From: Oligoflexales bacterium
GTDB taxonomy: Bacteria > Bdellovibrionota_B > Oligoflexia > Oligoflexales > JAPPIL01
Assembly (NCBI GenBank): GCA_965215515.1
Contig: OZ244057.1
Coordinates: 1,568,001 to 1,632,000 of the forward strand
Length of the DNA: 64,000 nucleotides
Direction of reading: 5' to 3'
The position numbers and the translations under genes are program-made. Positions 1 to 37,099 of this stretch are shown one piece after another. The notes under the pieces were generated by a model. The model searched no databases and was not told where the DNA came from. It saw nothing but the letters and a program-made list of their open reading frames with translations. How positions within the stretch are numbered: position 1 is the stretch's first letter; the number at the start of each line of letters is the position of its first letter.

Positions 1-1284
1 CTCAGTGTCTTGGTAATCTTCGCACCTACCCCCTAGGGGGTTAATGCCTCTGCAAGTGTAAGGGATAGTTCTTGTCTGGATAAATTTATCGCAGTCACAC
101 TCAGTGCTCGCTTTTGGCTTCCATGCGGTGGGAGTCCCCCTTGTGCAGGGGCACGAGTTGTGGCAACAGCCCTTGTTACGGGCACTAGCATTGAACGTCC
201 CATACCACCCGTCATTGCAGATTAAGCCAAACGTATTGTGCACCTCGGTATTACCATCGCAACACTGCGTTGCTGTGTTGCATTCATCAGGTGGCGGCGG
301 CAGCGGCGTTGGCGTTGGCGTTGGCGTTGGTGGCGTTGGCGTTGGTGGCGTTGGCGTTGGTGTTATGCAAACCTTCGTCCCTCTAACTGTCCGTTGCACA
401 GTCCGTGTTGCTGCTGGACAGGGAGGCGGTCCACTACAGACTCTCGTCTGTGGTACATTTTCAATTCTCGATTCGCCCTCACAGGCGTTGGGATCTGTCC
501 TACTATCACTCACCGCAGGCTGCCAAGGAGTACATCCGCATCTCCTACAGCAGCCCTTATTAGGGGCACTATCATTGAACGTCCCCCACCACCCGTTGCA
601 GGTTAAGCTAAATGTATTAGCCACCACGGTATTACCATCACAGCACTGTGTTGTCGGATCACATGGTGGCGGAGGCGGTGGTGTTGGTGGCGGCGGCGGC
701 GGCGGTGGTGCCCCTAAGCCTGCGGGGCAGTACTTGGTGATGTTGCGGCAGACCGTGGGTTTGGCATCGCGCAACGCCATCCTCACCGCATCACCCCGCG
801 TATAGTCACACTCCTCTCTCCCCCCGCCATGACAATCGGGATAAATATACCTGCCCTCAGCATCGGCATAGGCAAAGGCAACCGCAACATTACCAGGACG
901 CAACTGATAAAAATAACGTAACTGTCCACAGGCTTGCGGACGGAAACCCAGATGGTTATTCAACCCCAGATCGCGATCATCGGCGTAGTCCCCACAATCA
1001 CCCCTAGTACCGTCCTCATTCTTGTAGCCGATACCACCATCAGGAGCGAGCAACGCGGAGCCACTGTAGTACCTGAAGTGCTCGATCTTATACACCGCCT
1101 GCAGACTAGCCAGATGGGCGAGATTGCTCTTCGCCTCCCCCCGCCGTGCCTGCGCCAAGAAAGCATGATAACGCGGCAGCGCCAAGGCCACCAAAATGCC
1201 GATAACCGCCACCGCGACCATCAACTCCACCAAACTTAAACCCGCTCTCGTCCGCACCACTTCCCTTTTTTTGGCTAAAAACAA
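1..1284 (-). CDS. Type IV pilin-like N-terminus fused to Pro hinge and Cys-rich variable domain (copy 1; 3' end outside the window)
   Basis: Hand translation: RTRAG|LSLVELMVAVAVIGIL prepilin cleavage motif, ~190 aa nearly identical to 34853..36820, then PPPPPP and CDPTTQCCDGN... The frame stays open to base 1. It is absent from the ORF track because it has no stop in the window. Confidence 0.85.
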   Translation of the reverse strand, partial: MFLAKKREVVRTRAGLSLVELMVAVAVIGILVALALPRYHAFLAQARRGEAKSNLAHLASLQAVYKIEHFRYYSGSALLAPDGGIGYKNEDGTRGDCGDYADDRDLGLNNHLGFRPQACGQLRYFYQLRPGNVAVAFAYADAEGRYIYPDCHGGGREECDYTRGDAVRMALRDAKPTVCRNITKYCPAGLGAPPPPPPPPTPPPPPPCDPTTQCCDGNTVVANTFSLTCNGWWGTFNDSAPNKGCCRRCGCTPWQPAVSDSRTDPNACEGESRIENVPQTRVCSGPPPCPAATRTVQRTVRGTKVCITPTPTPPTPTPPTPTPTPTPLPPPPDECNTATQCCDGNTEVHNTFGLICNDGWYGTFNASARNKGCCHNSCPCTRGTPTAWKPKASTECDCDKFIQTRTIPYTCRGINPLGGRCEDYQDTE

Positions 1285-1578
1285 AACTTTCCCGCGCGAA
1301 CACCATCGGCGTTTTTTTTTTCACTTTAGTTGCGTTGCCAAAACCCCCAAATTACCATTGTTTACCTGCAATATTGCGGGGAGAGAGGGAAGAGAAAAAA
1401 CAATGGACATTCCGCCGTCGTACCACCAATATCGCACGGTAAGCAGGAAGTTAACTTGGGGGATATCTAATAATGGGTAACGCAAAAAAGAACAGTGCAA
1501 GGCCATCTAACATCCACAATGACTACGCTCTTGACCAACTAGAGACAGAGGAAGATTGCCGCGGCTTGATTGCCTTGC
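700..1578. repeat. ~0.87 kb direct repeat (pilin constant region, promoter, Rpn 5' end); other copies at ~32382-33241 and, shorter, ~36240-36921
   Basis: Visual alignment. Identity to copy 2 ends abruptly after GATTGCCTTGC at 1578/33241. Confidence 0.9.
1473..1578 (+). pseudogene. 5' fragment of Rpn/YhgA-like gene
   Basis: MGNAKKNSARPSNIHNDYALDQLETEEDCRGLIAL, identical to the start at 33136, truncated at the junction with island DNA. Confidence 0.6.
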
Positions 1579-1700
1579 TGAGGCTGTCCTTGTCCTTCTT
1601 GGCTAGATAGTCAGCCCTCGACCTAGCCTTCTTGCACTCCTTACATACACTGTCTAGACGGCTACCTTTGGAGCAGGAGCTTAGGCCACCCTGTATGTAT

Positions 1701-2528
1701 CTAGCGCACACAGAAAATGTCCCCACTCGCACTTTTAAAAATCATTTCACTTTTTGTATCAACAACATCGTTAAACATGGCGAAGTAAAATTTAGACTGG
1801 CAGTAATGGCGTTCGGCTGCCTCTCTATCTAGCTTTAGCAGGGTATGCAAGATGTATCTGTTCGCACAAATGTAGAGCACTCCATCAATCTTTTGTTGGC
1901 GATAGTAGGCATAGAGCTTGCGCCTATAGCTGCGGTGGTTTTTGTGCGTCGTATCGAACTCAATAGCAAAATTTAATGTCCCAACTTTTGAATCAACTGC
2001 AATCATTGCGTCACTGTTCAGTGCAATGAATGGCTTGAACCACTCGTTGTTCTTGAAATCGGTGCGAGTTTGCAGGACATTTTCAGTATAGTAGCCTTGC
2101 ACTGTTGCTTTAGCTTCAAATACTTGGCGAATATCGTTCAGGGCTATATCATGCAGCGGGCATTCGCTTCGTGTCGCTTTGGTTTTTATTTTGTAGGGCA
2201 ACGTTGGTGTAATTTTGGTAAGGCCGCGTAGTGTCAACGAGTAGCCCGAAATTGCCCTGCGCTCGACATATGCCGTAGTTTTTTTGATCAAGCCTAGCCC
2301 CGCAATCTTGCGCAATCTCCTGTTCACCTTATCTTTGCAGACATTGGGAAAGAACTGGTCGCCTATTTGCTCCCTGCTAACGATCTTGTTCTCAAACAGC
2401 AAGCGCATTATTTTGAAATCTCGCTCGCCTAACACAACACGTGTGAATGTCCTGTCGCTGGTAAAATAATCACTTGCCCGCCAACTTTGGTATTTGGCTT
2501 GCCTATCGACCGCAAAAACAACTGACAT
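1701..2528 (-). CDS. Replication-relaxation family protein (wHTH plus PD-(D/E)XK-like domain)
   Basis: ERDFKIMRLLFE...RRLRKI wHTH, HDIAL, DAMI...FAIEFDTT..K...Y..KL..Y, VLYIC motifs. Confidence 0.7.
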   Translation of the reverse strand: MSVVFAVDRQAKYQSWRASDYFTSDRTFTRVVLGERDFKIMRLLFENKIVSREQIGDQFFPNVCKDKVNRRLRKIAGLGLIKKTTAYVERRAISGYSLTLRGLTKITPTLPYKIKTKATRSECPLHDIALNDIRQVFEAKATVQGYYTENVLQTRTDFKNNEWFKPFIALNSDAMIAVDSKVGTLNFAIEFDTTHKNHRSYRRKLYAYYRQQKIDGVLYICANRYILHTLLKLDREAAERHYCQSKFYFAMFNDVVDTKSEMIFKSASGDIFCVR

Positions 2529-2838
2529 GCGATACCTCCATACTGAAATGGAAAAAACTTCCCCCCACTAATAGCGGAAAAGGTCAACCCCCTAGACGAA
2601 AGTCAACCTTTGTCAACATTAGTAGGCATTGCCGCAAATAACTGTCTACCTATGCCATACCTGTTGCTGCGGCGATGGCACATCTGGTAAGTGGAGCTAG
2701 AAAGAGGTTAAGAGCAGCCCCACGAGCCAAGGGAGGGAGGTAAAGACGGAGGGTTAATTATCACCCCATACGCATCACTGCATAGACGGCAGTATTGATG
2801 CACCCTCACTAGGTCTTGGTTGTGCTGAACTCTCGTTG

Positions 2839-4117
2839 CTAAGTGGCTTGTGTCTGATGCTGGTCTTGCACCCTCGCGACCACATGTAGCGTGCCTTCAG
2901 TGGCTTCGGGAATTTCGTTGGCAGAAATGCTAAATCCCATGTCAAAAGGCTTGATGGACTCCCAATCTTGAAAACGGAGCGTGATGTAGTCACATTTTCT
3001 ATAAAACTCATGTTTTAGCTCATCAACACTAATACGCACTGAAGAACCATCTTCTTCTATTACAGGCTTGCCATTATTATTGAAAAGCAGGCTAGGGAGG
3101 GTGGGGGCAGGCTGATCCCTCATAAAGTAGTCTAGTTCCTCACCAGGAGGAGGTGGACACTTCGGTTTTCCAGGAAGTTTGTCAACAGCCTTCACACTAT
3201 CAGGAAGGTTTAGGTACAGGTCGATGTTTGATGTGGGTGCTGTTCCAGCGTTACTAATTACCAGCTTGAAACAAAAGCAGAGACCTAACTTGTCTCTGTA
3301 TACCACTATGTCAGCGTAGTATTTATCATAACGCTTGTAGTATTCTTCGAGCTTTTTATTCTGGTAGGTGGGTGAACCCAGCTGGGCGTTGATCCGCTCA
3401 AATGTACTGCATGGCTCAGGTAGTTTTTCCTCTGGGATGTTTACATCCTTGAGCGGATACTTTTTTCTTATCTGCGAAGGAGATAACTCGCCCTTCATAG
3501 TTGGCTTTGCAAAGATAAGCTCTAACTCATTCTTCCCACTCTCAAAAGCGACAGATAGCTTTGGAATGCGAGACAGTTGTTGGTGGAGCTTCTTATTTTC
3601 TCCCTCTAGTTTGTCTGGCTCAGGCTGCAAACGGAGATCATCGGGCAGTTCAAGCAACTCGATCCCTTTGTTAGCTTCGATCTTGAGCTTGAGTCCAAGA
3701 CCGCCTGTAGCAATATAAACTGACGCATTGATATGGTTGTGAGGCATAGTCTAACGCACTAGCAATAAGTTGGTCGTCAGCAATGTGACGCGACAAGTTG
3801 TAGGATTCAAAATCTATTCTCGGCTCGTAAGTGATAAAATGCAGGCTAACACCGTCTCGAATACTTTTGCCGCCTTTGAAAACTTTCCACAACCATTTGA
3901 CAGTGCTACCTGCCCGATCACGTATTTTTCGAGACTGATTACTGACCTTCTGTTCCTCCAGCTCTCTGATCAGCACAGGAGCAATCACAATGACAACCTT
4001 GTCAGCACCCGCCAGCTGCCGCCAATCTATCTGACCCAGCCTCTTGTAATGGAGGGCAACGTTGGTGTCGATGAAGATGTGCACGGTGCGATTAGTGCTG
4101 GGCATACTGCCTATCAT
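2839..4117 (-). pseudogene. PIN-domain ribonuclease with C-terminal beta domain, frameshifted near 3745
   Basis: IFIDTNVALH, VLIRELEEQK and ADDQLIAS in 3671..4117 continue as VYIATGGLGLKLK in the 2839..3747 frame. Confidence 0.7.
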
Positions 4118-4280
4118 TGCTTTTCAAGTCCGCATGGCTTGGCCTTTATCAGGCTAATCGGCAAAAGGTACCGCAGGAAAAGGGCAATAGCAAGCCTTGA
4201 AATGTGACTAACCAGCCGTTACATACGTCTATTGATGGTTACAGTGCTCTGTTGCAGCAACGCACAATGTTGGCAGAACT

Positions 4281-4700
4281 TTATCTCAACGTAGACAGCT
4301 TTACCCAGTTGCCATCTTCGTTTTGAACATACCAGTAGTTCCATCCATTTAATCTACTACCAAGTGCAGCTACAGCTGCACCAGAGGGAGAATCATATAG
4401 CTTACCTGCATATTTTATTTTTCCTGAAGTCAACAAGCTTGCCTTATATTCTTTCCCTTTAAACTTAGTTGAGAGTAGTGGCCTTGCTGTGCTGAATTTA
4501 TTCTTTAAGGTAGGTCGCTTTGTTTTGGTTTTCAATTTCTTTCTCTTGCTAGAGCGTTTTGTGCCAAATAATCTACCAATCTCCTCTTCCTGTCTTTTTC
4601 TGACAAGGACCTTCAGCTCCTTTATTAGCTTAGCGTCAGCACTGCCCTTAGGTTTAGCTTTGTTTCCTCTTGGATTTGAGTGAGCTTTTCTGGCTCAAGG
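4281..4700 (-). pseudogene. RAMA/DUF4357-like domain protein, 5'-truncated
   Basis: YKASLLTSGKIKYAGKLYDSPSGAA...LNGWNYW signature. The frame is open upstream (SNPRGNKAKPK) with no good start. Confidence 0.6.
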
Positions 4701-16840: not shown

Positions 16841-17993
16841 CTAGCTAAACAGAGCATAAGCTTCGTGTGCACTTATTTCTCCCTCTTGCACTAATGCAAA
16901 AGCCGCGTCCCTTGAGACTGCCGACCTGTGTAATCTTTTTTTCTTCGTCTTTATGCAGATATTCAAAGACAAGTGTGTGTCCTCGTGTGCCGCTGGCATG
17001 GCAGTGTTCACAGCCCGCCGCGCTGTAGGGCACAATGTCTGGTGCTGCTTGCGGGAACATCGCTGCGAGCATCATGCTTACTTCTTTTGCTGCCGTTTTG
17101 CAGGCGGGGCACAGGGTCTTAGCTAGCCGTTGTGCAGAAGCAAACAACAGCAAGCTCTCGACGAGCTGGTGCTCAACACCTAACCCCTCTAGCCGCGTTA
17201 AAATTTCTTGGGCACTGTTGGCATGCACGGTGGTTAGCACGAGATGCCCGGTGCAGGAGGCATGTATCGTGGCGATGGTGTTCTCGCGATCACGCACTTC
17301 ACCGATCATGATCACGTCGGGGTCTTGCCGCATTAGAGCACGCAAGGTGGCAGCGAAAGAAAAATTTTTGCGTAGATCGATGGCGGTTTGGTTAATCCCT
17401 ACCAACTCGCATTCGATCGGGTCTTCGACGGTGCAGACGTTAAGCTTATTGCGATCGAGGCTGCCGAGAATTGAGTAAAGCAACGTTGATTTGCCCGAAC
17501 CGGCGGGGCCGGAGATAACGATCAAGCCTGCTTTTTTATTTATCAAGCGTTGTAAGATTGCCTTTGCTTCGGTCTCCAGCGGGTAACTTGCGAGACTGAA
17601 ATCTTTGCCGCGTTCCAGTAGCCGTAAGCAAATTTTTTCGCCGTAGCGGGTGGACATAAGTTCACCACGCAGATCGAGCATCTCTTCGGGATGTGTCCAG
17701 CGTGTGTCTTGCGGCATCCCGACGACGGTCATGTTGAAACCGAGCAGGTGTTTGGTTTGTTCGGCGAACAACGTGCTGTCGTCACGCGTAACTTCCTTGA
17801 TCTTGTGCAGTGTGCCGTCGATGCGTTGGCGAATACAGATACCGATTGCAGTGGGTTCGATGTGAATATCCGATGCGCCGTGGGTGAAGGCATAGCTACA
17901 GATATCGAGCAGGGCAGCTTGATGTGGGGTCATAGTAGCTTGCATGCGTTCTCCAATATCAAGTACTTTTCCGTTTTTACGGTTAGCTCCCAC
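16841..17993 (-). CDS. GspE/PilB-family traffic ATPase, apparent frameshift near 3' end (~16910)
   Basis: ASDIHIEP, GPAGSGKST, TVEDPIE, RQDPDVIMIGEVRD, TGHLVLTTVHAN, CPAC/CEHC. The canonical-looking tail RDAAFALVQEGEIS is in another frame. Confidence 0.85.
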
Positions 17994-25326: not shown

Positions 25327-26883
25327 CTATGCGGCAAACTTTCGCTTACGCCGATAGTATCCTTGGGCAATACGATCCATCACCATCGCACAGAGCAGAA
25401 TAGCCAGTCCTGCCAGCAAGCCTTGTCCTTTTGCGGCGTATTGCAGGGCTTCCAGGATCAGCGCTCCTAGTCCTTCCGCTCCGATCAGCGAGGCGATAAC
25501 CACCATCGATAAACTCATCAAAATCGTTTGATTAACACCTGTCATAATAGATGGTGTTGCCAATGGCAATTGCACTCTCCACAGTAGCTGCCACGACGAA
25601 CAACCGAAAGCGAGTGCGGCCTCTTGCGTATCGGCGGGCACAGCGCGAATGCCAAGTGCCGTGAGGCGAATTACAGGGGGAATAGCAAATATAATCGTCA
25701 CCAGCACACCTGGTGGTTTGCCTGTGCCGAAAAAAGCGATGATAGGAATTAGGTAAACGAAAATCGGCATCGTTTGCATGAAATCAAGCACAGGTTCGGC
25801 AAGACGATAAGCACGCGCATTACGCCCGAACCAGATGCCGAGAGGAATACCCAAGACGATGCAAATGCCTGCCCCCGCACCGATCAAAGCTACCGTTATC
25901 ATGGAAACTTCCCACAAACCGAAGAGAGCAAGATACGCCAGCGACGCGGCGGTAAAGATTGCCACACGTGTCCCTGCAAGACGAAAAGCTATCACCACCA
26001 ACACCAACATCACCACAGGCCACGGTGTACCCAGTAACATAACCTCCAAAGCATCGAGCAATATCACCACCGCCCGCACCACACCATCGAACACCTGCCC
26101 GAACTCGGCGATCACCTCCGCAAAAGCACGATCGCCGAGCCGTGCCACGTAGTTGAAAAATTCTCGCTCCAACGGAAATTTGGTAATGGTAAGCTTAGTG
26201 CCGAGCCAGCCGCCGCTCAACTTAGCCAGTGCCTGGTCGGGATCGAGGGCGACGAAACGGAAAATGGTGAGCGGGATGATCGCCAACAACAACACCGCAC
26301 CGATCACACAGCCGCGTCCGCTACAGCCACTCGTCTCGGAAGAAGGGCGGATACGCCAACGCCGATATTTTTTCTGGTAAATTTTATTGGCATAGAAGCC
26401 CGTGCAAATTTTAATGAGCAGCAGCACCGCAATACCGAGATACAGCGGGGCGAAGTTATCTTCCTGCCCTATTTGCTGAGTAAGCTGTGCAGCTACTTCG
26501 GTCAGGTTAGCGATCACGCGGCTAGCCGTCTCCACTGCGGCATGATTACCTGCCGCTTGTGCCTCCTGTAATTGTTGTTGACGAGTCGCGATGTTGGCTA
26601 ACAATTTTTGCTGCCGCAGCACCAGTTCTCCGCCCGCTTGTCCCCAGATCCCACGACCGATCTGCACCAGAGCCAGCAGTTCGAGCAACAACAGAAGCCA
26701 AAAAAGTCCCCACATACGTCGCCATGCCGCCCACAGGGAACCACCGACCGCGGCGGCACCGTTCCAACTCCATACCCATTGTGCCCTGTCGGCATTTTGA
26801 ATTTGGTCGAATGCCTGTCTGTAGTAGGTTGCGTGTCGTTGTACGAAAACAGGTACGTGTGCACCGAGTTCCTGTGTGCTCAC
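25327..26883 (-). CDS. proW: Glycine betaine/proline-type ABC permease with N-terminal DUF2628-like extension
   Basis: LDFMQTMPIFVYLIP, EAALAFG, GVNQTILMSLSMVVIASLIG; GTG start with AGGAG RBS in the last repeat unit. Confidence 0.85.
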   Translation of the reverse strand: MSTQELGAHVPVFVQRHATYYRQAFDQIQNADRAQWVWSWNGAAAVGGSLWAAWRRMWGLFWLLLLLELLALVQIGRGIWGQAGGELVLRQQKLLANIATRQQQLQEAQAAGNHAAVETASRVIANLTEVAAQLTQQIGQEDNFAPLYLGIAVLLLIKICTGFYANKIYQKKYRRWRIRPSSETSGCSGRGCVIGAVLLLAIIPLTIFRFVALDPDQALAKLSGGWLGTKLTITKFPLEREFFNYVARLGDRAFAEVIAEFGQVFDGVVRAVVILLDALEVMLLGTPWPVVMLVLVVIAFRLAGTRVAIFTAASLAYLALFGLWEVSMITVALIGAGAGICIVLGIPLGIWFGRNARAYRLAEPVLDFMQTMPIFVYLIPIIAFFGTGKPPGVLVTIIFAIPPVIRLTALGIRAVPADTQEAALAFGCSSWQLLWRVQLPLATPSIMTGVNQTILMSLSMVVIASLIGAEGLGALILEALQYAAKGQGLLAGLAILLCAMVMDRIAQGYYRRKRKFAA

Positions 26884-27325
26884 TGCTCTGCTCCTGCGTA
26901 CACAGACAGGTACGTGTGCACCGAGTTTACGCAAGCAGGTACGTGTGCACCGAGTTCCTGTGTGCTCACTGCTCTGCTCCTGCGTACACAGACAGGTACG
27001 TGTGCACCGAGTTCCTGTGTGCTCACTGCTCTGCTCCTGCGTACACAGACAGGTACGTGTGCACCGAGTTCCTGTGTGCTCACTGCTCTGCTCCTGCGTA
27101 CACAGACAGGTACGTGTGCACCGAGTTCCTGTGTGCTCACTGCTCTGCTCCTGCGTACACAGACAGGTACGTGTGCACCGAGTTCCTGTGTGCTCACTGC
27201 TCTGCTCCTGCGTACACAGACAGGTACGTGTGCACCGAGTTCCTGTGTGCTCACTGCTCTGCTCCTGCGTACACAGACAGGTACGTGTGCACCGAGTTCC
27301 TGTGTGCTCACTGCTCTGCTCCTGC
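26851..27325. repeat. 57-bp tandem repeat, 8 units plus one 29-bp partial
   Basis: Units start at 26851, 26937, 26994, 27051, 27108, 27165, 27222, 27279; partial at 26908. Confidence 0.95.
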
Positions 27326-28960: not shown

Positions 28961-30055
28961 TCACTCCTCTTTTTTCAGTTCACCCCAGGTGGTGGTTTGT
29001 TTTCCTTTTGCCGCGACAGGCATAGCCTTGGGGTGGGCGGCGATGAGCTGTGCGAGCTCGTCGTGCCCGAGTTCTTTCGCCAACTCTAAAGGTGTTTTCC
29101 CCTCCTCGTTAGTCAAGAATGGTTTGGTGTCCGCGTGCTGAAGTAATTTCTGCGCCAGCCGCTGATAGCGGTGCTGTACCGCGTGATGCAGGGCGGTCAT
29201 CCCTTCCGCATCACGGGCGTTGACAGCGAGATTCTCATCCTGTTCGAGGACAATTATCGCTCCAATCTCCAACCCGTACTTGATGGCAAAGATCAGCGGA
29301 TATTTAGGGCGGCAGCCGAGCGGTACGTGTTCCAGTTCGTAATCGTCGAAAAAACAGTCCTTAAGCGATAACCCCTCATATCTTTGCTTGTAGAGCCAAA
29401 GGACACCGTTCTTGTCATCTCTACCGAGCATTTCGCCATCCTTGTTGAGACCCGAGGCTAGCATCATGGCGGAAGCGGGCTGCGTGCCTAGGCCACTATC
29501 AAGACCGCCCTTGTCCAGGTGCTGCAGTTCGTCTCTCTTGGCCTCAGGAATATAGGTATCCGCTAACCCGAAGGCATGACCCACCTCGTGCGCCAGGATA
29601 AACATGAAGCTGCCCACGACCTGCGTGCCCTTACGCATACGGATTAGCGGTGCTACTTTTTCGCCTATGAATGCACTCGAGTTATCTCTTTGATCACAAT
29701 GGAAGACGACGGAGAGGTGGCTACCTGGCAGTCTCTCTCCCAACAGGTAGCGGAAATCAGCGACAATTTTCCCTTGCTTGTTCTCGTATTCTCGCAGCGG
29801 TTGCAACCACATCTGTAGCACGGCGGTGATTGCCTCAGTCAAGGCGTTATCGTTGTTACGCTGTTCAGCGGGACAGTCAGCACCATAACTGTAGCTGATA
29901 TCCCAATGCGGCTCATGGACGCTATCGACCATAATGCGTGGCCGATAATCCCGCTTATGCTGCAACGCGATGAACTTCTTAGCCGCGGTCGGTGGCCGCA
30001 GCAGACAGGCGGTGAGCAGAACGAAAGAGCTGAGAATGGCTAGCAGTTTCATCAC
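28961..30055 (-). CDS. Lipoprotein metzincin-like Zn protease with ankyrin repeats and TTTWGELK tail
   Basis: LLTAC lipobox, HEVGHAFGLAD, QPASAM Met-turn, GMTALHHAV/GKTPLELA. Confidence 0.85.
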   Translation of the reverse strand: MMKLLAILSSFVLLTACLLRPPTAAKKFIALQHKRDYRPRIMVDSVHEPHWDISYSYGADCPAEQRNNDNALTEAITAVLQMWLQPLREYENKQGKIVADFRYLLGERLPGSHLSVVFHCDQRDNSSAFIGEKVAPLIRMRKGTQVVGSFMFILAHEVGHAFGLADTYIPEAKRDELQHLDKGGLDSGLGTQPASAMMLASGLNKDGEMLGRDDKNGVLWLYKQRYEGLSLKDCFFDDYELEHVPLGCRPKYPLIFAIKYGLEIGAIIVLEQDENLAVNARDAEGMTALHHAVQHRYQRLAQKLLQHADTKPFLTNEEGKTPLELAKELGHDELAQLIAAHPKAMPVAAKGKQTTTWGELKKEE

Positions 30056-30064
30056 GCTTCCTCC

Positions 30065-32949
30065 CTATGGTTCCCGCGTAAAAAAGCTAGGGGGCTCGCA
30101 ACACTGTGTTCCTGATATCCCGCACCTCGTATTATTGTCGGAGCCTGTCCCACAATCATTAGCATCACTAACAATGTGATTATTGAGCTGTGTGTTGACA
30201 CCCTTCGTAAAGTCGGTCTCATCCTGCAAGGCAGTATCAATTGCAAGGAGACAGGCGCAGGTGATGCTGCTGCCGCTTGTAGTTGTTTGGAAAATACCTC
30301 CGTCGACCTCACACTTATACTTTGCCACAGAGATTGTGTCACCTATCGAATAATTAGCATCACAGGTAGAGGTAGTGGGTTCTTTTTGGCAAGTGCATGA
30401 GCTGACTATCTCTTGTGCTGTCGTATACTGGAACTCCTGGGGTACGCAGAGTGTTGCTTTTGATCGACTCTTTTTAACCTCAGTTAGGCCCGCAGCGGAA
30501 CAGGGACTGGTGCAGGTGCGTTTTGCAATCGTCTCCTTCTGGCAAGTGCCGTTAGCATGTTCGATGCATCCTGGTTCCAGACCTGCCTGCCATTCATTGT
30601 TATCGCCGTTCACCGCACCATCCACCCAGTTGCCACAGTCCCCTACAGACCCAGGAGTTCTATTGCCATTGACATTTTGTGAGATACTTCTACTCCATCC
30701 TTGACTTGTGCATGCCGTTTGCGCCGCACTATAGCCAGGATCAGAAGCACCCCTAAGGCTTTCAAGTGTACAAACTTGCTCCATCTCCCCAGTCTGCTCG
30801 ATACAATGGCAGGTATACAGGTCGGTAAGGTCTACCGTACCCCAGCTTGTCGTAGTCCCACACTCGCATTTAAGGCAGCAGCCTGTACCTGAGTTATCGG
30901 TTGCTACGCCTGTCCAGTAGTCAGGGCTGGTGCAGCTCATGTAGTTAGTACCATCTGCTGGGATTACTTCCTCACCACTGAGACAGCACTTTGTGTTTTT
31001 GTCGCATACTTCGGGCTCAATCGTGCATTCCCCCGTACATTCACTCTCGTCGAAGCTCCAAGCCCCGCCACCACTGCAGTTGTTGCAGGTACTTCCATCC
31101 CAAGTGCCCATTACTTTGCCGCATTCAGCCGCATGATTATTACACACGCACTTGCCCGTCGGAGTAACTCCGAACACAGACAGCGCCTTGTTGAGCAGGC
31201 TGAATGAAGTACGAGCAGAGAAGTTCCATACCTTCTTGGGATCAGAGCAAGTGCACTTGCACCTATTATCGTTCCAGGTTGCATTGCTATCACCTACGCA
31301 CGCAGTCCTCTCAGCTGCTTTATCATCAGGGCACTGACACGTACAATTACTCGAATTGTATACTCTGTTCACGTATGTCGTCCCATCGCTGCTGTTGCAA
31401 TTGCAGCCACTATCATATGTAGCCCTTTCCCGTTCCCGACAGCTACCGTCCCTCGTCCCATCCAAACAGGCACTCTCACACTCTCCCACTTCCACCGCCG
31501 GCCCCCCTGAGCAATGCCCCTCCACTTGCTGTTCTGTCTCTGACTTCTTCGCACACACGCACCTACCCACCGTCCAGGGAGTAGGAGCCGTCCAGATGAC
31601 GGTGTAGTCTGAAGTTGGATTTATACAGGGGTCATCTTGAAGCACGCCTTCGTCGCTGCAGCAGTAGTGGGTATTGTGGTTGTCCTCCTTGCATCCTTCG
31701 GGCTCCTCAGTTTCAATGGCGGAGCAGTCACACGCATCTGGGTCCAAGTCCGTGTTCCAGCTGATTGTGTATGCATCATCACAGTTATCACCGCTGGGAA
31801 TGACACCACCAGTACCTTCCTCACTGCAGCAGTAGTTGCTCATGTTGCGCTGTCGGCATTCTTGGTCTCCATCCTTAGGATTGCAAGTGCAGTTAGCAGT
31901 ATCAACCCCGTGTGGGCAATCAGTAGCAGTAAGTGGACACTCGCACTGGCAGGTTGTGGAATTCCATGTGTAGTTGCCAGTACAAGACTGTGGAGCACAT
32001 CCACATTGGCAGTGACTGGGAATCCAGGTGTAACCTGGAGCACAATCATCTGCGCTTTTGTTGCATATACAACAATCAGGCTGACTTATATCTGTTTCCC
32101 ACCCGCCAACTTTGGCGCAGGTGGTGCATGGGGGGGGGGGTAGTACACGTACAAGTAGTACCATCCAGCACTGCTGGGGGAGTGCAGGTAATATTGCAGG
32201 CACAACAATCGTTACCGTGAGCAGTAACATCAAAGCTCCAGTTGGAGTTTAACCCAGCTTTATCGCAGGTTGTCTTTGGGTTTCCATACTCTCCTTCAGG
32301 ACAACACTGTGTACTCGGGTTGCATGTCGGAGGTGGTGGCGTTGGTGTCGGATCAGGCGGTGGTGTTGGTGTTGGCGGCGGCGGCGGTGGTGCCCCTAAG
32401 CCTGCGGGGCAGTACTTGGTGATGTTGCGGCAGACCGTGGGTTTGGCATCGCGCAACGCCATCCTCACCGCATCACCCCGCGTATAGTCACACTCCTCTC
32501 TCCCCCCCGCCATGACAATCGGGATAAATATACCTGCCCTCGCTATCGGCATAGGCAAAGGCAACCGCCTCATTACCAGGACGTAACTGTCCACAGGCTT
32601 GCGGACGGAAACCCAGATGGTTATTCAACCCCTGATCGCGATCATCGGCGTAGTCCCCACAATCACCCCTAGTACCGTCCTCATTCTTGTAGCCGATACC
32701 ACCATCAGGGGCGAGCAACGCGGAGCCACTGTAGTACCTGAAGTGTTCGATCTTATACACCGCCTGCAGACTGGCCAGATGGGCGAGGTTGCTCTTCGCC
32801 TCCCCCCGCCGTGCCTGCGCCAAGAAAGCATGATAACGCGGCAGCGCCAAGGCGACCAAAATGCCGATAACCGCCACCGCGACCATCAACTCCACCAAAC
32901 TTAAACCCGCTCTCGTCCGCACCACTTCCCTTTTTTTGGCTAAAAACAA
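30065..32949 (-). pseudogene. Pilin-Cys-rich fusion copy 2, split by two homopolymer frameshifts
   Basis: ORFs 32488..32949, 32076..32594 and 30065..32233 join if C7 (~32502-32508) is C6 and G11 (32130-32140) is G10. Confidence 0.85.
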
Positions 32950-33135
32950 AACTTTCCCGCGCGAACATCATCGGCGTTTTTTTTCACTTTAGTTACGTTG
33001 CCAAAACCCCCAAATTACAGTTGTCTGCCTGCAATATTGCGGGAGAGAGGGAAGAGAAAAAACAATGGACACTCCGCCGTCGTACCACCAATATCGCACG
33101 GTAAGCAGGAAGTTAACTTGAGGGATATCTAACTA

Positions 33136-33671
33136 ATGGGTAACGCAAAAAAGAACAGTGCAAGGCCATCTAACATCCACAATGACTACGCTCTTGACCA
33201 ACTAGAGACAGAGGAAGATTGCCGCGGCTTGATTGCCTTGCACAATCCGCAGGAGGCTGCACGGTTGGGCAAGATAACCGCCCTGCCGACGAGCTACAGC
33301 GATGGCAAGCAGAGCGGGAACGGCGGCTTGAAAAGGGCTGTACTTTTATTGTAAAATATGCGTCTGAGTTCGGTTGGGGGCGTTTGATCAGGATTGAGCA
33401 GAAAACTTTTCCAGAGGAGGAATGGTTAGTGGCACGCTTGAAATTCAGCCGTGAGGCTTATGGTGATGAGCAGCGGGAACAAGGGATAGAGCTGGGCATC
33501 GTTAAGGGCCGAGCCGAGGGCGAGGCCAAAGGCAAGGACGAAGCGCACCGTGACATCGCGATGAAGATGCTCAAGGAAGATGAGCCTGAAGCTAAAATCA
33601 TCCGTATCACGGGGTTATCCAGGAAGGAATTGCAACTCCTCAAGCGCGGTCTGAAGGGCAAGAAGGTGTAG
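33136..33671 (+). pseudogene. Rpn/YhgA-like gene, nuclease core deleted; C-terminal small ORF (33429..33671) intact
   Basis: HNDY...LHNP N-term; EQREQGIELG..GRAEGEAKG..IAMKML...ITGLS C-term; GAGGAGG at 33414-33420 before an in-frame GTG. Confidence 0.7.
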
Positions 33672-33692
33672 ATCTGGGGTTGCCTCCGACGG

Positions 33693-34832
33693 TCACTCCT
33701 CTTTTTTCAGTTCACCCCAGGTGGTGGTTTGTTTGCCTTTTGCCGCGACAGGCATAGCCTTGGGGTGGGCGGCGATGAGGGCAGCGATGCGCTCTTGTCC
33801 TGTCTCTTCGGCTAACTGTAGGGGGGTAAGCCCGTCCTTGCCTTTCAAAAAAGGCTTAATGTCAGGACGGGCGAGGAGAACACGGATCACTTCTTCGAAC
33901 CGATGGAGCACCGCGTGGTGCAAGGCAGTCATCCCATCTGCATCCTGTGCATTGACCGCAAGATTTTTGTCGTCGGCAAGCACCCCGAGAGCAAAACTCT
34001 CAACGCCATGTTTGAGTTCAAAGATAAGCGGGTACTTGGGCGCACAACCGAGTGGTGTCTCTTCCAGTTCATAGTTAGAAAAAAAACAGTCTTCCATGGG
34101 CAGTCCTTCATAGGTATATTTGTAGAGCCAGGTGATGCCATTCTCATCGTCTTTCCCCAGTGGCACAAGCCCATGCAGAGGAACGGGGTCGTCAACTATT
34201 ACAAGGCGGCCTTCATTTTGTAGTAGTGTTTTGTTTAGTAGCGTGAGAAAACGGCTGCTCATGATGGAGCCAGGTTGCGACCCTCTTGTGCCGTCTAGCC
34301 CGCCAGTGCTACGGCCACCCGCTCCAAGAATAGCACCAACGTAGGTGTCCGCTAAACCAAAGAGATGCCCTAGTTCGTGCGGCATCGAGTTCATCCCGCG
34401 CCAGGTAAACTCAAGACCAGTATGCGTGGGATTGATGATCCCCAGCGGGCCAAAGAATGCTTTAGGAGCTTCTTCAAAAACACAGATGTGGGTGACACCA
34501 AAAGTAGCGCCACGCCAATCAGGGTTGAGCCGATAGCGAAAATCAGCGACGATCGGTTTGTCAGTGTACTCCCGCAACGGTTGTAGCCACGATTGCAGAA
34601 ACTTGGTCACGATCTTAGTAAACCTCAGCTGCGTCACCTCGTCCACAGGCGGGCAGCGATCAAAACTATAGTGGATCGTCCAAAAAGGCTCATGCACCTT
34701 AGCTATCAGATAACCATCGAAGCGTTGGCGAAGCTCGTGATCCACGGCCATAAACTTAGTGTCCGTGCTCTGTGGTCGCACTATGCAAGACAATAACGAT
34801 AGAGAGAACGACAAAACAAATGAGTGCCTCAT
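33693..34832 (-). CDS. Lipoprotein metzincin-like Zn protease with ankyrin repeats and TTTWGELK tail (paralogue)
   Basis: LLSC lipobox, HELGHLFGLAD, QPGSIM, GMTALHHAV, identical C-terminus. Confidence 0.85.
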   Translation of the reverse strand: MRHSFVLSFSLSLLSCIVRPQSTDTKFMAVDHELRQRFDGYLIAKVHEPFWTIHYSFDRCPPVDEVTQLRFTKIVTKFLQSWLQPLREYTDKPIVADFRYRLNPDWRGATFGVTHICVFEEAPKAFFGPLGIINPTHTGLEFTWRGMNSMPHELGHLFGLADTYVGAILGAGGRSTGGLDGTRGSQPGSIMSSRFLTLLNKTLLQNEGRLVIVDDPVPLHGLVPLGKDDENGITWLYKYTYEGLPMEDCFFSNYELEETPLGCAPKYPLIFELKHGVESFALGVLADDKNLAVNAQDADGMTALHHAVLHRFEEVIRVLLARPDIKPFLKGKDGLTPLQLAEETGQERIAALIAAHPKAMPVAAKGKQTTTWGELKKEE

Positions 34833-34852
34833 AAACGTATTCTCCTAAGGGT

Positions 34853-36820
34853 TTAGAATAGACAGGTTTCTAGCCTTCCTCGACTTGTATGACGAAAACC
34901 ACTCGCGCAATCGTAAGCACTGCATCGGTCGAGTGCTTCGAAGAGATACTCTTTTGAAGAATTTAAAGCTTCTAGAACTGGATGCTCAGGACCTAGCTCA
35001 GCATTAATTGCCCTTCGGCATGGAGCGGACATCTTACTCTTGTCCTTATTGCCCGCATGGAAATAGTCCCACCACAGTTGCTGAGCACGAGCATTCTCCC
35101 CTGGCATGTTGCCTACAAGATCGCCTGAAAATGGGTTCTGGTGGGACTCGAATCCAGCTTCTGAATATCCTATGCAATCATTAGGAATAGCCCTACCCCC
35201 TCCTGCTTTAGTACCGTGAAGGAGAATGTTTTGGACTTCACCAAGTTTGAAGGAAGACAGCTTGTTGCAAGCGCCCAGGGCCACGATGGGGTTGTAGCAG
35301 TCGCAGTGGTCCGCCCCGTCCCACGAGGTAAATATTTCCCCCTCGGGGCAAGTCTCACAAAGACATCTGCATGTGTATAATTCTGTCGACTCATCGGTGC
35401 TAATAAGTGTGGAGTGAAAAATTCTGTATCTATTACAGCCGATATTCTTCGCTTCCTCTAGAGTCTTCTCGGGGAAATCGCTGTCGCTATCGCATTTTTT
35501 TTCCACAGCTGGGCATCTACAGGCTTGTTCATCTGGTGTCGTGGGTCGCGAGGTGGCACAGGCAGCGGGGATGGAAGCGGGACATATGTCCGTACCGACA
35601 CTGCAAGGATTAGTGCAATCCCTGGTTTCATTACCTGCACGTTGCTTACAGATGGGGTTGCCGTCATCATCTGTATCGACCTGAGTGCACGGCCCCCACC
35701 TAGGTGAAGGTGGTGTCCATGCCTCGCAAGAACAGACGGGCGGTTGCGTGCCACATATTGGATCCTCACGTCTCGTGCTCGTCTGGTCGGGGCAGGTGGG
35801 TGGTGGTGGAGTGTACTGGTGGGTTATGCTCTTGGTACAGACAGTCTCTGCGCAGGTAAGAAGACTGGCAGGGGCTCCTGGTGACCAGGTGCAAGGCCCC
35901 TCTGTGCTGCTTGCTAAAGTGCAGGGGGAGCAAACGGCTCTTGTCTCTGGCGGTTTCCAAGAGCAAACACAAACAGCCGCGGTGGCATCCTCAACGAATG
36001 GCCGCGTGCCCCACACAGTTCGGCGCTGGGTTTGGGAGGTGGAGGCGGGGCAGGGCACAACTACACAGGCACCGCGTCCGTCAGGAGTGTATGCCCAGGT
36101 ATTAAGCCTGGTCTGCACAAAACTCTCACACTCGTACTTGGTCGTGAGATCCACAGCTGGACTCCAAGTTCCTGGCGTTAGTATTGCCGTGCAAGGACAG
36201 GGAGGATCGGGCGGAGGTGGCGGCGTTGGTGGTGGCGGAGGTGGTGCCCCTAAGCCTGCGGGGCAGTACTTGGTGATGTTGCGGCAGACCGTGGGCTTGG
36301 CATCGCGCAACGCCATCCTCACCGCATCACCCCGCGTATAGTCACACTCCTCGCTCCCCCCGCCATGACAATCGGGATAAATATACCTGCCCTCAGCATC
36401 GGCATAGGCAAAGGCAACCGCAACATTACCAGGACGCAACTGATAAAAATAACGTAACTGTCCACAGGCTTGCGGACGGAAACCCAAACGGTTATTCAAC
36501 CCCTGATCGCGATCATCGGCGTAGTCCCCACAATCACCCCTAATACCGCTCCCACTCTTGTAACCGATACCACCATCAGGGGCGAGCAACGCGGAGCCAC
36601 TATAGTAATTACCGTGCTCGACTTTATACATATCTTGTAAGGTGGCCAGGTGGGCGAGATTGCTCTTCGCCTCCCCCCGCCGTGCCTGCGCCAAGAAAGC
36701 ATGATAACGCGGCACTGCCAAGGCGACCAAAATGCCGATAATCGCCACCGCGACCATCAACTCCACCAAACTTAAACCCGCCTTCGTCCGCACCACTTCC
36801 CTTTTTTTGGCTAAAAACAA
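34853..36820 (-). CDS. Type IV pilin-like N-terminus fused to Cys-rich variable domain (copy 3, intact)
   Basis: G|LSLVELMVAVAIIGIL, EAKSNL, Pro hinge, TSP1-like W..W.PC...TRDC. Confidence 0.85.
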   Translation of the reverse strand: MFLAKKREVVRTKAGLSLVELMVAVAIIGILVALAVPRYHAFLAQARRGEAKSNLAHLATLQDMYKVEHGNYYSGSALLAPDGGIGYKSGSGIRGDCGDYADDRDQGLNNRLGFRPQACGQLRYFYQLRPGNVAVAFAYADAEGRYIYPDCHGGGSEECDYTRGDAVRMALRDAKPTVCRNITKYCPAGLGAPPPPPPTPPPPPDPPCPCTAILTPGTWSPAVDLTTKYECESFVQTRLNTWAYTPDGRGACVVVPCPASTSQTQRRTVWGTRPFVEDATAAVCVCSWKPPETRAVCSPCTLASSTEGPCTWSPGAPASLLTCAETVCTKSITHQYTPPPPTCPDQTSTRREDPICGTQPPVCSCEAWTPPSPRWGPCTQVDTDDDGNPICKQRAGNETRDCTNPCSVGTDICPASIPAACATSRPTTPDEQACRCPAVEKKCDSDSDFPEKTLEEAKNIGCNRYRIFHSTLISTDESTELYTCRCLCETCPEGEIFTSWDGADHCDCYNPIVALGACNKLSSFKLGEVQNILLHGTKAGGGRAIPNDCIGYSEAGFESHQNPFSGDLVGNMPGENARAQQLWWDYFHAGNKDKSKMSAPCRRAINAELGPEHPVLEALNSSKEYLFEALDRCSAYDCASGFRHTSRGRLETCLF

Positions 36821-37099
36821 AACTTTCCCGCGCGAACACCATCGGCGTTTTTTTTTTCACTTTAGTTACGTTGCAAAAAGCCCAAAATTACCATTGTCTA
36901 CCTGCAATATTGCGGGAGAGAGAAGATGGGGCGCGGCCCCACACACCCCGCTGACTTTTTGCAAAAAGTTGGAGCAAAAACTCAATTCCTGAGTTCCGCA
37001 GGTAAATCAGCATTGTTGCCTAAGTCGGTGTATACTCAGGCACTACGAGTCAGTTTGGCAAGCGACGATGTGATAGCAGCTCGGAGGAAAAAGTTAGTG

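Follow-up and report, generated by a model that had tools for sequence, protein, structure and literature searches.

Why would one bacterial genome place the same pilin start in front of very different cysteine-rich proteins, and follow each of them with a gene for a protease? The question arises from a 64,000-nt window (positions 1568001-1632000 of contig C1) of G000, the genome of an Oligoflexales bacterium, a single contig of 2,180,710 bp with 52.6% G+C. A reading of the window from its letters (hereafter the original prediction) had pointed to two tandem two-gene cassettes, each with a type IV pilin gene followed by a gene for a lipoprotein metzincin with ankyrin repeats, and to a third pilin copy at the edge of the window. 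Searching the whole genome with tblastn and a listing of open reading frames (ORFs), we found 13 such cassettes, which sum to 54,055 bp, or 2.5% of the genome. On the evidence of their sequences they are old paralogs in which an upstream block and a constant pilin head have been homogenised by gene conversion, and this is the best-supported part of our account. We describe the gene structure, family assignments, copy number, synteny, concerted evolution and mosaicism of the cassettes, and then infer what they may do, which touches on filament display, adhesion, the target of the protease and any switching. We think it probable, with room for doubt, that the cassettes encode polymorphic modular type IV pilins displayed on a pilus, co-transcribed with an extracytoplasmic metzincin-ankyrin lipoprotein and diversified by recombination.

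Thirteen cassettes of a long pilin and a protease

The cassettes are numbered c01 to c13, and c07, c08 and c09 lie in the window or reach into it (Table 1). The 13 head-bearing pilin ORFs are 590-1205 aa long. In 13/13 cases the protease gene is the next gene on the same strand, starting anywhere from a short overlap to 95 nt past the pilin stop. With the same head in 12 large ORFs and a diverged one in the 13th, and with the protease family after all 13, chance is excluded. The pairing proposed from the window holds for every copy in G000, including the pilin that starts at 1284, and for 6/6 long pilins in two sister genomes. The ORF positions given for c09, c08 and the third pilin also hold, with one correction: the pilin of c08 is where it was placed, but as assembled it is not a single ORF, being divided by two +1 frameshifts into three overlapping frames.

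Ten of the 13 pilin genes are intact from a common TTG start. That of c05 is intact too, diverged and with a start region of its own. In c02, A8 in place of A7 in the leader codons puts the TTG out of frame, and the gene is open from a GTG eight codons further on; c08 is the frameshifted copy. Remnants of the family are found elsewhere in the genome. A decayed mini-cassette (genome 964645-964971, minus strand) keeps the upstream block, head codons 1-50, ~47 nt from around head codon 150 and, of the protease gene, the last ~49 codons; its first deletion fuses two copies of GGCGGGGGGA(G), which suggests loss via recombination between short repeats. An orphan protease gene with no upstream pilin (genome 2172390-2171320, minus strand) has YEMGH for HExxH and a truncated C-terminus, and directly 3' of it an unrelated 90-aa ORF carries head codons 1-24 as an in-frame fusion. 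A 22-codon fragment of the protease tail lies at genome 2153314. G000 also has five ordinary short pilins of 157-224 aa.

The N-terminus of the long pilins reads MFLAKKREVVRTKAG up to the predicted cleavage site and LSLVELMVAVAIIGILVALA after it, with Gly at -1, Glu at +5 and a hydrophobic helix, the marks of a class III signal peptide; the leader ends in RTKAG, and cleavage is predicted between its G and the following LSLVE. Pfam N_methyl scored 21.3-25.4 bits (cut-off 21.2) on all heads scanned, with the window heads (3/3) at 23.4-25.4, and TIGR02532 scored 22.2 (cut-off 16.3) on the pilin head. The NCBIfam models PilA_Myxo (Myxococcus PilA) and GspG match the first ~60 aa only. A conserved CRNITKYCP closes the head at aa ~192, and after it come a Pro/Thr-rich hinge and a tail of ~400-1000 aa with 7.6-10.2% Cys in the 13 pilins. 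This is the layout of a modular pilin, in which a pilin module is joined through a linker to an extra module. The genome holds one Peptidase_A24 prepilin peptidase (80.7 bits), eight matches to T2SSE ATPases, including two of ~600 aa and PilT-sized ones, and three secretins, so a machine able to process and assemble such subunits exists. A PilT-sized T2SSE-family ATPase is encoded in the window itself (16938-17912, minus strand; open frame of 384 aa, 279 bits), ~11 kb from c08. The N_methyl matches and the processing and assembly genes thus bear out the prediction of a pilin-type first gene with a grafted variable part.

The tail of c09 has one real outside relative, P0122 (41-45% identity), in 5.8 billion clustered proteins and 1.84 billion representatives. 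An exhaustive search of the 1.84 billion representatives gave five matches at E<=1e-3, and a word-indexed search gave the query and P0122. Two of these five, both weak, were judged spurious, being long repetitive proteins with unrelated Pfam matches (DUF11 repeats, a stray DrmE_C). ESM Atlas gave no usable match for residues 205-655 or 484-655 of the c09 pilin. The tails had also been described as carrying TSP1-like modules. A W(G/S)xC...C...R.(R/T)C..PC pattern does occur ten times in 8/21 pilins, a likeness of pattern that the searches did not confirm: Pfam gave no TSP_1 match in the tails at E up to 1, a profile of eight tail modules found no TSR chain in the Protein Data Bank (PDB), and jackhmmer seeded with one TSP1-like module recovered, within the family, only its ortholog.

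The second gene of each cassette encodes a predicted lipoprotein. Read by eye, 13/13 proteases have a signal peptide and a lipobox Cys (LLSC, LLTAC, LLTSC, LLISC, IVSC and similar, taken as [LVI][ASTVI][GAS]C); this Cys is absent from some homologs in Poribacteria. In the zinc motif HExGHxFGLxD(T)Y the residues H, E, G, H and D are invariant in 13/13 paralogs and 22/22 family members, as is the Met of G(T/S/K)QPxSxM, the Met-turn, ~29 residues past the motif (13/13 and 22/22). Also conserved are DDxxG..W.Y and a Cys pair around YELE..P.GC.PK. Ank_2 scored 33.1 and 55.2 bits (cut-off 27.3) on two window proteases, and in structure comparison a model of the whole protease resembles known ankyrin structures (Z 13-15).

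Pfam lacks a family that covers the catalytic part; Peptidase_M10 scored 14.5-18.4 bits on it (cut-off 24). Searching the PDB with a profile of the 13 catalytic domains, we found snapalysin first (1c7k/4hx3, E 0.007, 50 residues), with HETGHVLGLPDHY aligned, and MMP-7 next, with the Met-turn aligned to SDPNAVMYP and, in addition, the LSQDDIKGIQKLYG helix (DDxxGI..LY). With the whole-protease model, Foldseek and VIA-align returned ankyrin proteins only, and the catalytic domain was therefore modelled alone. The AlphaFold2 model of this domain (mean pLDDT 70.3) matched only metzincins in Foldseek (MMP-11, -13, -7, -8, snapalysin, astacin and karilysin), with a best E of 1.5e-3 and a TM of ~0.55 on target, a moderate score. 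VIA-align placed MMP-9 first (Z 9.4, rmsd 3.5 Å, 143 residues), and ranks 1-34 were all metallopeptidases, nearly all of them metzincins. The scores are moderate; motif, Met-turn and modelled fold agree, and on this evidence we conclude that the protease is a metzincin with Asp as the third ligand, as in snapalysin. Together with the lipobox and the Ank_2 matches, this agrees with the predicted lipoprotein metzincin-ankyrin.

The protease is not a member of M10 or M7 proper: it stays below the M10 cut-off, and the snapalysin match reaches only E 0.007 over 50 residues. As judged from these comparisons, it is a separate, unnamed metzincin family, with 162 database members at E<=1e-5, all recorded as 'hypothetical protein'. 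The c06 and c07 proteases carry Dockerin_1 and FlgD_ig/Por_Secre_tail at the C-terminus, which argues for a location outside the cytoplasm.

Constant ends and exchanged middles

Heads of the 11 intact copies and the readable head of c08 are 90-99% identical in protein within G000, and the head of c05 is 59-62% identical to the others. The 13 proteases are 34-79% identical to each other, and the tails 20-85% over their best local alignment. Eleven heads form a single clade (100/100) in the head tree, with terminal branches of 0-0.03. In the protease tree the G000 branches are long and interleaved with those of two genomes of the same genus, G001 and G002: c09 groups with G2a (100/99), G2b falls among c01, c10, c13, c04, c03 and c11, and c02 lies near G1c and G1d. 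The G000 label needs four changes on this tree, at least three of them forced by well-supported branches. The c01 tail is closest to that of G2b (37% over >=90% of the length) and the c05 tail to that of G2a (39%); the c01 head is 91-96% identical to its G000 paralogs and 55% to G2b. Near-identical heads beside old, interleaved proteases indicate that the upstream block and head have been homogenised within the genome by gene conversion. The c05 head escaped this homogenisation, though the c05 protease is sister to those of c08 and c12.

We compared the 12 homogenised cassettes in 66 pairs for the limits of their shared sequence. In 42/66 pairs the homology at the 5' side starts at -120..-101, and in 23 it starts upstream of this. 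Its end falls at rel. 550-649, in the hinge, in 50/66 pairs, at 900-1049, where a shared first tail module ends, in 13/66, and beyond 1600 in 3. The clustering of breaks at the hinge agrees with the constant flanks proposed from the window. The same upstream block, start region and full head are present in 12/13 copies, and the three upstream-plus-head blocks of the window are 84-92% identical in DNA.

At the distal edge of the upstream block, as defined by an alignment of 13 upstream regions, 12/12 homogenised cassettes have a perfect 10-bp palindrome, GCAATATTGC (c09: ~36904-36913), which could be a regulator site. The original prediction had called this stretch a near-identical promoter. 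The conserved block of ~110 nt is there; a sigma-70-type consensus site within it is not, as a promoter scan gave 7 sites in the region against 6.1 expected, and no sigma-54 consensus was seen in the block by eye.

The tails are mosaics, in which DNA blocks of at least 95% identity stand at shifted offsets and are common to different sets of cassettes (examples in Table 1, one of them within the protease gene). Complete divergence after the hinge, as first described, is what the three window copies show; across the genome, six tails share their first module and many share blocks. The tail of c12 is 85% identical to that of c04 and its protease groups with those of c05 and c08, so tail and protease have recombined independently and do not form a fixed pair. 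The layout had been thought suited to exchange between copies, and such exchange has left clear mosaics within G000.

The end of the protease gene is constant as well. As predicted, the last 87 nt of the c08 and c09 genes are near-identical (86/87 bases); identity is 0.5-0.6 further into the gene and 0.2-0.3 past the stop. When the 3' ends of 11 cassettes are aligned, ~95 coding nt and ~20 nt past the stop are near-identical in most copies, synonymous sites included; c05 and c02 differ. The C-terminus is PKAMPVAAKGKQTTTWGELKKE(E), or close to it, in ten of the 13 cassette proteases, and c02 has a diverged form. The peptide LPV..KGK..TTWG.LK is conserved even in distant members of the protease family, and a functional motif thus makes up part of the 3' constant flank. 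Two paralogous signal-peptide ORFs of ~310 aa with no Pfam family (genome 986640-987557, plus strand, and 659691-660641, minus strand) end in K(L/V)(S/A)TTWG(A/R)IK. The shared TTWG C-terminal peptide hints at a sorting or recognition tag of the lineage.

The arrangement extends beyond G000. In a few related genomes, which are kin and not independent samples, long pilins are followed by the protease in 4/4 cases (G001) and 2/2 cases (G002), both of the same genus; these pilins are 579-691 aa long with 6.9-8.9% Cys, and identity between their heads is only 43-62%. G002 also has two shorter pilins with a hinge (235 and 376 aa), and the 4-kb loci around them contain no HExxH ORF. In G003, a fragmented genome of the same family and another genus, one contig has a Cys-rich open frame running into the protease, another an 858-aa pilin and a further one a c06/c07-type protease. 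Two genomes from another family of the order gave no match to the protease with the query used. A collection of 5.8 billion proteins holds 43 proteins of >=337 aa (579-1087 aa) with this head type at E<=1e-10, none of them named. Five long pilins are encoded on one contig of 2.85 Mb; they have the same hinge, their heads are 88-100% identical and their tails differ, so a constant head with variable tails has also arisen in a second genome, where the head sequence is a different one. Named records that contain the protease are limited to 'MAG: Oligoflexales bacterium' and six 'MAG: Candidatus Poribacteria bacterium' loci (MAG, metagenome-assembled genome).

Table 1. Cassettes and their parts. 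Positions are those of the window unless marked as genome (G000) or, for mosaic blocks, given with the cassette.
Feature	Position	Strand	Details
Pilin start c01	genome 99382	+	
Pilin start c02	genome 240166	+	
Pilin start c03	genome 416899	-	
Pilin start c04	genome 1041511	-	
Pilin start c05	genome 1343685	+	
Pilin start c06	genome 1491008	-	
Pilin start c07	genome 1569284	-	
Pilin start c08	genome 1600949	-	
Pilin start c09	genome 1604820	-	
Pilin start c10	genome 1864522	-	
Pilin start c11	genome 1874368	-	
Pilin start c12	genome 1919415	-	
Pilin start c13	genome 1947545	+	
Upstream block c09	36821..36930	-	poly-A A10 at 36848-36857
Pilin c09	34853..36820	-	655 aa, TTG start, open frame
Pilin module c09	36245-36820	-	to ~aa 192
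Pro-rich hinge c09	~36185-36244	-	followed by 440-aa Cys-rich tail
Protease c09	33693..34832	-	379 aa; 20-nt gap after pilin; lipobox LLSC, HELGHLFGLADTY, Met-turn, ankyrin repeats 266-360, C-terminal peptide PKAMPVAAKGKQTTTWGELKKEE
3' constant block c09	33693..33779	-	last 87 nt of protease gene
Upstream block c08	32950..33055	-	poly-A A8 at 32977-32984
Pilin c08	30065..32949	-	three overlapping frames: 32949-32488, 32594-32076, 32233-30065
Protease c08	28961..30055	-	364 aa; starts 9 nt past preceding open frame; lipobox LLTAC, HEVGHAFGLADTY
3' constant block c08	28961..29047	-	end of protease gene
Upstream block c07	1285..1395	-	poly-A A10 at 1312-1321
Pilin c07	1..1284	-	first 428 aa in window, runs off window edge; 937 aa in genome
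Protease c07	genome 1566463-1564826		outside window; 545 aa, C-terminal dockerin + FlgD_ig/Por_Secre_tail, no TTWGELK peptide
Mosaic block	c02 1145-1588 = c11 1022-1465		98.6% identical
Mosaic block	c13 575-1296 = c04 923-1635		95.0% identical
Mosaic block	c13 1360-1967 = c10 1933-2540		96.9% identical
Mosaic block	c10 4136-4521 = c13 3695-4080		99.2% identical, within protease

Repeats and remnants of mobile elements lie near several cassettes. The genome has 52 copies of GGGGCATCTACA or its reverse complement (window sites ~10546, 23864, 24026 and 25158), which form the ends of insertion sequences (IS) or repeats like miniature inverted-repeat transposable elements (MITE). They abut cassettes upstream (c06, c11, c13) and downstream (c03, c10, c11, c12, c13), and IS3-like transposase fragments follow c11 and c12. 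Just upstream of c07 are genes for a Replic_Relax protein (1701-2528, minus strand, E 2.5e-8) and a PIN_4 protein (3671-4117, minus strand, E 6.5e-6), which suggest a mobile-element remnant. Between c09 and c08, on the opposite strand, stands a 150-aa ORF without Pfam match (33219-33668, plus strand), which may resemble the tails of Rpn-type nucleases; C-termini like its own (..LSGEEL..IK..L) also close ORFs upstream of c03 and c12. At 26936-27325 a 57-bp unit is repeated in tandem without mismatch (6.8 copies, 100% matches), and an array of 86-bp period flanks this repeat at 26842-27013. An ABC-type ATPase ORF (28126->27308) meets a long ORF (27330->25327) here, and in the latter the 57-bp repeat would encode repeated QEQSSEHTGTRCTRTCLCT units.

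What the cassettes may do

On the reading that we favour, the pilin module would be the carrier that a type IV filament machine processes and polymerises, the hinge a flexible linker, and the disulfide-rich tail the displayed part, most likely at the filament tip, where it would bind a host or another surface. The 13 versions would widen or vary the range of targets. Gene conversion keeps the upstream block and head, and at the other end the last ~100 nt of the protease gene, near-identical, and between these constant anchors tail blocks, sometimes tail and protease together, have been swapped, with the hinge as the main breakpoint. The protease, secreted or surface-anchored and MMP/snapalysin-like, would be made together with the pilin and would act at the same interface, where it may trim or release the tail or cut a bound substrate. 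We favour such a role over that of a strictly cognate partner. The word 'cognate' in the original prediction finds no support, since tail and protease are reshuffled independently (c12) and the family occurs without a pilin in 6/6 Poribacteria loci. A complex prediction for the c09 protease (residues 37-379) and the C-terminal domain of the c09 tail (172 aa) gave a score of 0.00 and a mark of 0.32, with the fold of the tail domain itself uncertain, and so speaks neither for nor against a contact of the two.

Several observations weigh against this reading. The secretin would have to let through tails of up to 1000 aa; an appendage of 40-100 kDa would be unfit along the shaft, and display is plausible only at the tip, where a thin stalk of small disulfide-bonded modules could lead. 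A type IV pilus and a pseudopilus of the type II secretion system (T2SS) cannot be separated by sequence. No tail has a Pfam or NCBIfam match (0/13), and these searches recognised no adhesive, toxin or lectin domain. The hinge is Pro-rich in G000, but Gly-, Ser- or Thr-rich in relatives, which speaks against a conserved Pro-specific cleavage site. In the Poribacteria loci the proteases stand alone or in tandem, with a pilin-like neighbour in 0/6, so the primary target of the protease need not be a pilin. Two of the 13 pilin genes are defective as assembled, c08 through its two frameshifts and c02 through its start out of frame. Finally, of ten sequencing runs, with no RNA run among them, eight contain part of the window, and four (X1, X4, X5, X6) were compared as Logan contigs, which are short-read, broken in repeats and mix paralogs over the c08 region; the unique parts of the c08 tail are letter-identical in contigs from three studies, and no ongoing variation was seen where it would be visible.

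An alternative that we regard as fairly unlikely makes the pilin module an export handle, which would push the tail through the secretin, after which the metzincin would cut the linker and free a soluble effector or matrix protein. The tight coupling of a protease gene to every pilin gene, the long flexible linker between carrier and cargo and the extracytoplasmic protease would all suit it. There is also a precedent in PPEP-1/CD2831 and PPEP-2/VMSP, in which a metalloprotease is encoded beside a surface protein that is cut at Pro-rich sites (accessible part of PMC8610288). However, the composition of the linker varies among relatives, tail and protease have been reshuffled independently, and the protease family is found without pilins elsewhere.

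A bolder account, and a clearly unlikely one in our judgment, joins display to release: a retractile type IV filament would show one of a dozen interchangeable disulfide-rich modules at its tip, homopolymer tracts would choose the copies, and the metzincin would cut the linker, so as to drop the target or to deliver the module. If true, it would mean that a host-associated bacterium can vary its surface ligands, deploy them and shed them in a new manner, one that rests on the pilin fold and not on autotransporters, Rhs or fimbrial tip adhesins.

Homopolymer tracts may have a part in the favoured reading too. Tracts of A8-A11 stand ~40-50 nt upstream of the start, and there are A7 among the leader codons, G6 within the head and C10 near the hinge; their lengths vary among paralogs of the one assembly (A8-A11, A7/A8, G6/G7, C10/C11). 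The defects of both c02 and c08 sit exactly at such tracts. Compared with c11, to which it is 94.5% identical over the first ~1030 nt (to rel. 1029) by pairwise alignment, the c08 pilin has an extra G in a G7 run (32502-32508) and an extra C in a C11 run (32130-32140); its head also has an in-frame deletion of 18 nt (YFYQLR). The tracts could be on/off switches that change state by slipped-strand mispairing, the sole grounds being the length differences between paralogs and the defects at the tracts. In the Logan contigs, indel rows at 32129/32130 and 32976 are not separable from misplaced paralogs. The X5 contig has one base fewer at 32502, but it also has the 18 nt absent from c08 and is possibly a misplaced paralog; the X1 and X4 contigs have no cover at 32502, and a contig joint at 29314->29470 has one side of only 20 letters.

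Might the tails recognise other bacteria, as prey or competitors, with the metzincin attacking the envelope of whichever cell is bound? Among named records, the closest read 'MAG: Oligoflexales bacterium', and the phylum of the Oligoflexales holds Bdellovibrio. Bdellovibrio has a repertoire of surface fibres with diverse tips (accessible part of PMC10769870). In layout, with a constant N-terminus, a variable C-terminus and a gene linked downstream, the cassettes recall the Rhs/TpsA polymorphic systems. However, no toxin or lectin domain was recognised in any tail, the downstream gene belongs to one homologous family and not to diverse immunity genes, and the ankyrin repeats and the protease shared with Poribacteria MAGs point to an animal host. 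Ankyrin repeats are typical of eukaryote-facing proteins, and Poribacteria are sponge-associated; the shared protease and the repeats, and nothing beyond these two, suggest an animal-host life for this bacterium. By this comparison with other systems, recognition of prey or competitors appears quite improbable.

The weakest alternative takes the cassettes for relics of a repeat family, with little present function, which duplication and IS activity have spread through a genome in reduction and whose heads are identical from recent copying. It could call on the frameshifts of c08, the start shift of c02, the internal deletions of the mini-cassette, the YExxH of the orphan protease and the IS/MITE end motif (52 copies genome-wide) that abuts several cassettes, but it is hardly credible, because 11/13 pilin ORFs are open, up to 1205 aa, no catalytic residue is lost in 13/13 cassette proteases, the paralogs in the protease tree are old and not recent copies, and the pairing is kept in sister genomes.

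Whatever their role, 2.5% of a 2.18 Mb genome is given to a dozen modular pilins with one carrier module and shuffled tails. If the tails are ligands, the family would be a natural library of disulfide-rich binding modules on a common scaffold, and a clear case of concerted evolution that holds the carrier constant while the cargo diversifies. The metzincin-ankyrin family and its TTWGxLK peptide are each worth characterising.

Relation to known systems

A literature search, with most subscription journals outside its reach, found no cassette of a pilin and a metzincin-ankyrin protein, in keeping with the original prediction, which had known of no named system with this layout. The ingredients are known: modular pilins, metzincins, ankyrin lipoproteins and mosaic multigene surface families. 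What we have not found described is their combination, a dozen modular pilins with one homogenised module, tails without known domains and a fixed coupling to a metzincin-ankyrin gene.

The mosaic adhesive trimer (MAT) fibres of Bdellovibrio bacteriovorus form a large repertoire with diversified, chimeric tips and many targets (accessible part of PMC10769870). They resemble the cassettes in coming from a related phylum and in being a repertoire of variable surface parts, but as that source describes them they are phage-tail-fibre-like trimers and not pilins, and have no paired metzincin (PMC10769870). Polymorphic toxin systems (Rhs/CDI/TpsA) were considered and rejected, because the downstream genes are one homologous enzyme family and no toxin domain was found in the tails.

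In Neisseria, pilE is the one expressed locus and pilS are promoterless, partial silent copies, with variation inside the pilin fold. Like this system, the cassettes combine a pilin part that is constant at the N-terminus with a variable C-terminal one, and show gene conversion among many copies; unlike in Neisseria, their variable part is an appended tail. Antigenic variation of the pilE/pilS type was rejected, as 12/13 copies have the same upstream block, start region and full head. Multigene surface families under homopolymer control are known from the poly-A promoters of Mycoplasma hyorhinis vlp and from Neisseria opa. Like these, each G000 copy has homopolymer tracts at regulatory or early coding positions; unlike these, the length differences in G000 are seen only between paralogs of one assembly.

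The protease resembles snapalysin (M7) in its HExxHxxGxxD motif and third-ligand Asp, and the MMPs (M10) in its DDxxGI..LY helix, and it has a Met-turn and, in the model, a metzincin fold. It differs from both in ~100 extra aa N-terminal to the core, the lipobox, the ankyrin repeats and the conserved C-terminal peptide. For a protease encoded next to a surface protein, the nearest parallel is offered by PPEP-1/CD2831 and PPEP-2/VMSP, secreted zinc proteases encoded beside an adhesin that is cleaved at Pro-rich sites, for which release has been proposed (accessible part of PMC8610288). There, as here, the protease gene lies directly beside the gene for a surface protein with a Pro-rich linker (PMC8610288). 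Unlike the cassettes, which hold pilins in 13 copies and in which cleavage is putative, the PPEP pairs are single, belong to Firmicutes and have sortase-anchored substrates. The PPEPs are peptidases of family M34, not metzincins.

Type IV pili are usually described as one major pilin and a few minor ones, and it was recognised only recently that functions can be grafted onto the filament by means of modular pilins. Raynaud et al. (2021, PMC8179133), in the accessible part of their paper, describe more than 1,200 proteins in 264 architectures, each with a pilin module, a linker and a bulky module, and argue for exposure at the tip. The modular pilins PilB and PilC of Streptococcus sanguinis and CofB of enterotoxigenic Escherichia coli (ETEC) share with ours a class III signal peptide, a linker and a C-terminal module (PMC8179133). 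Against this background, and as far as that part of the paper goes, G000 stands apart in having 12 pilins with the same module and different Cys-rich tails of 400-1000 aa without a database domain, and in coupling each copy to a metzincin-ankyrin gene (PMC8179133).

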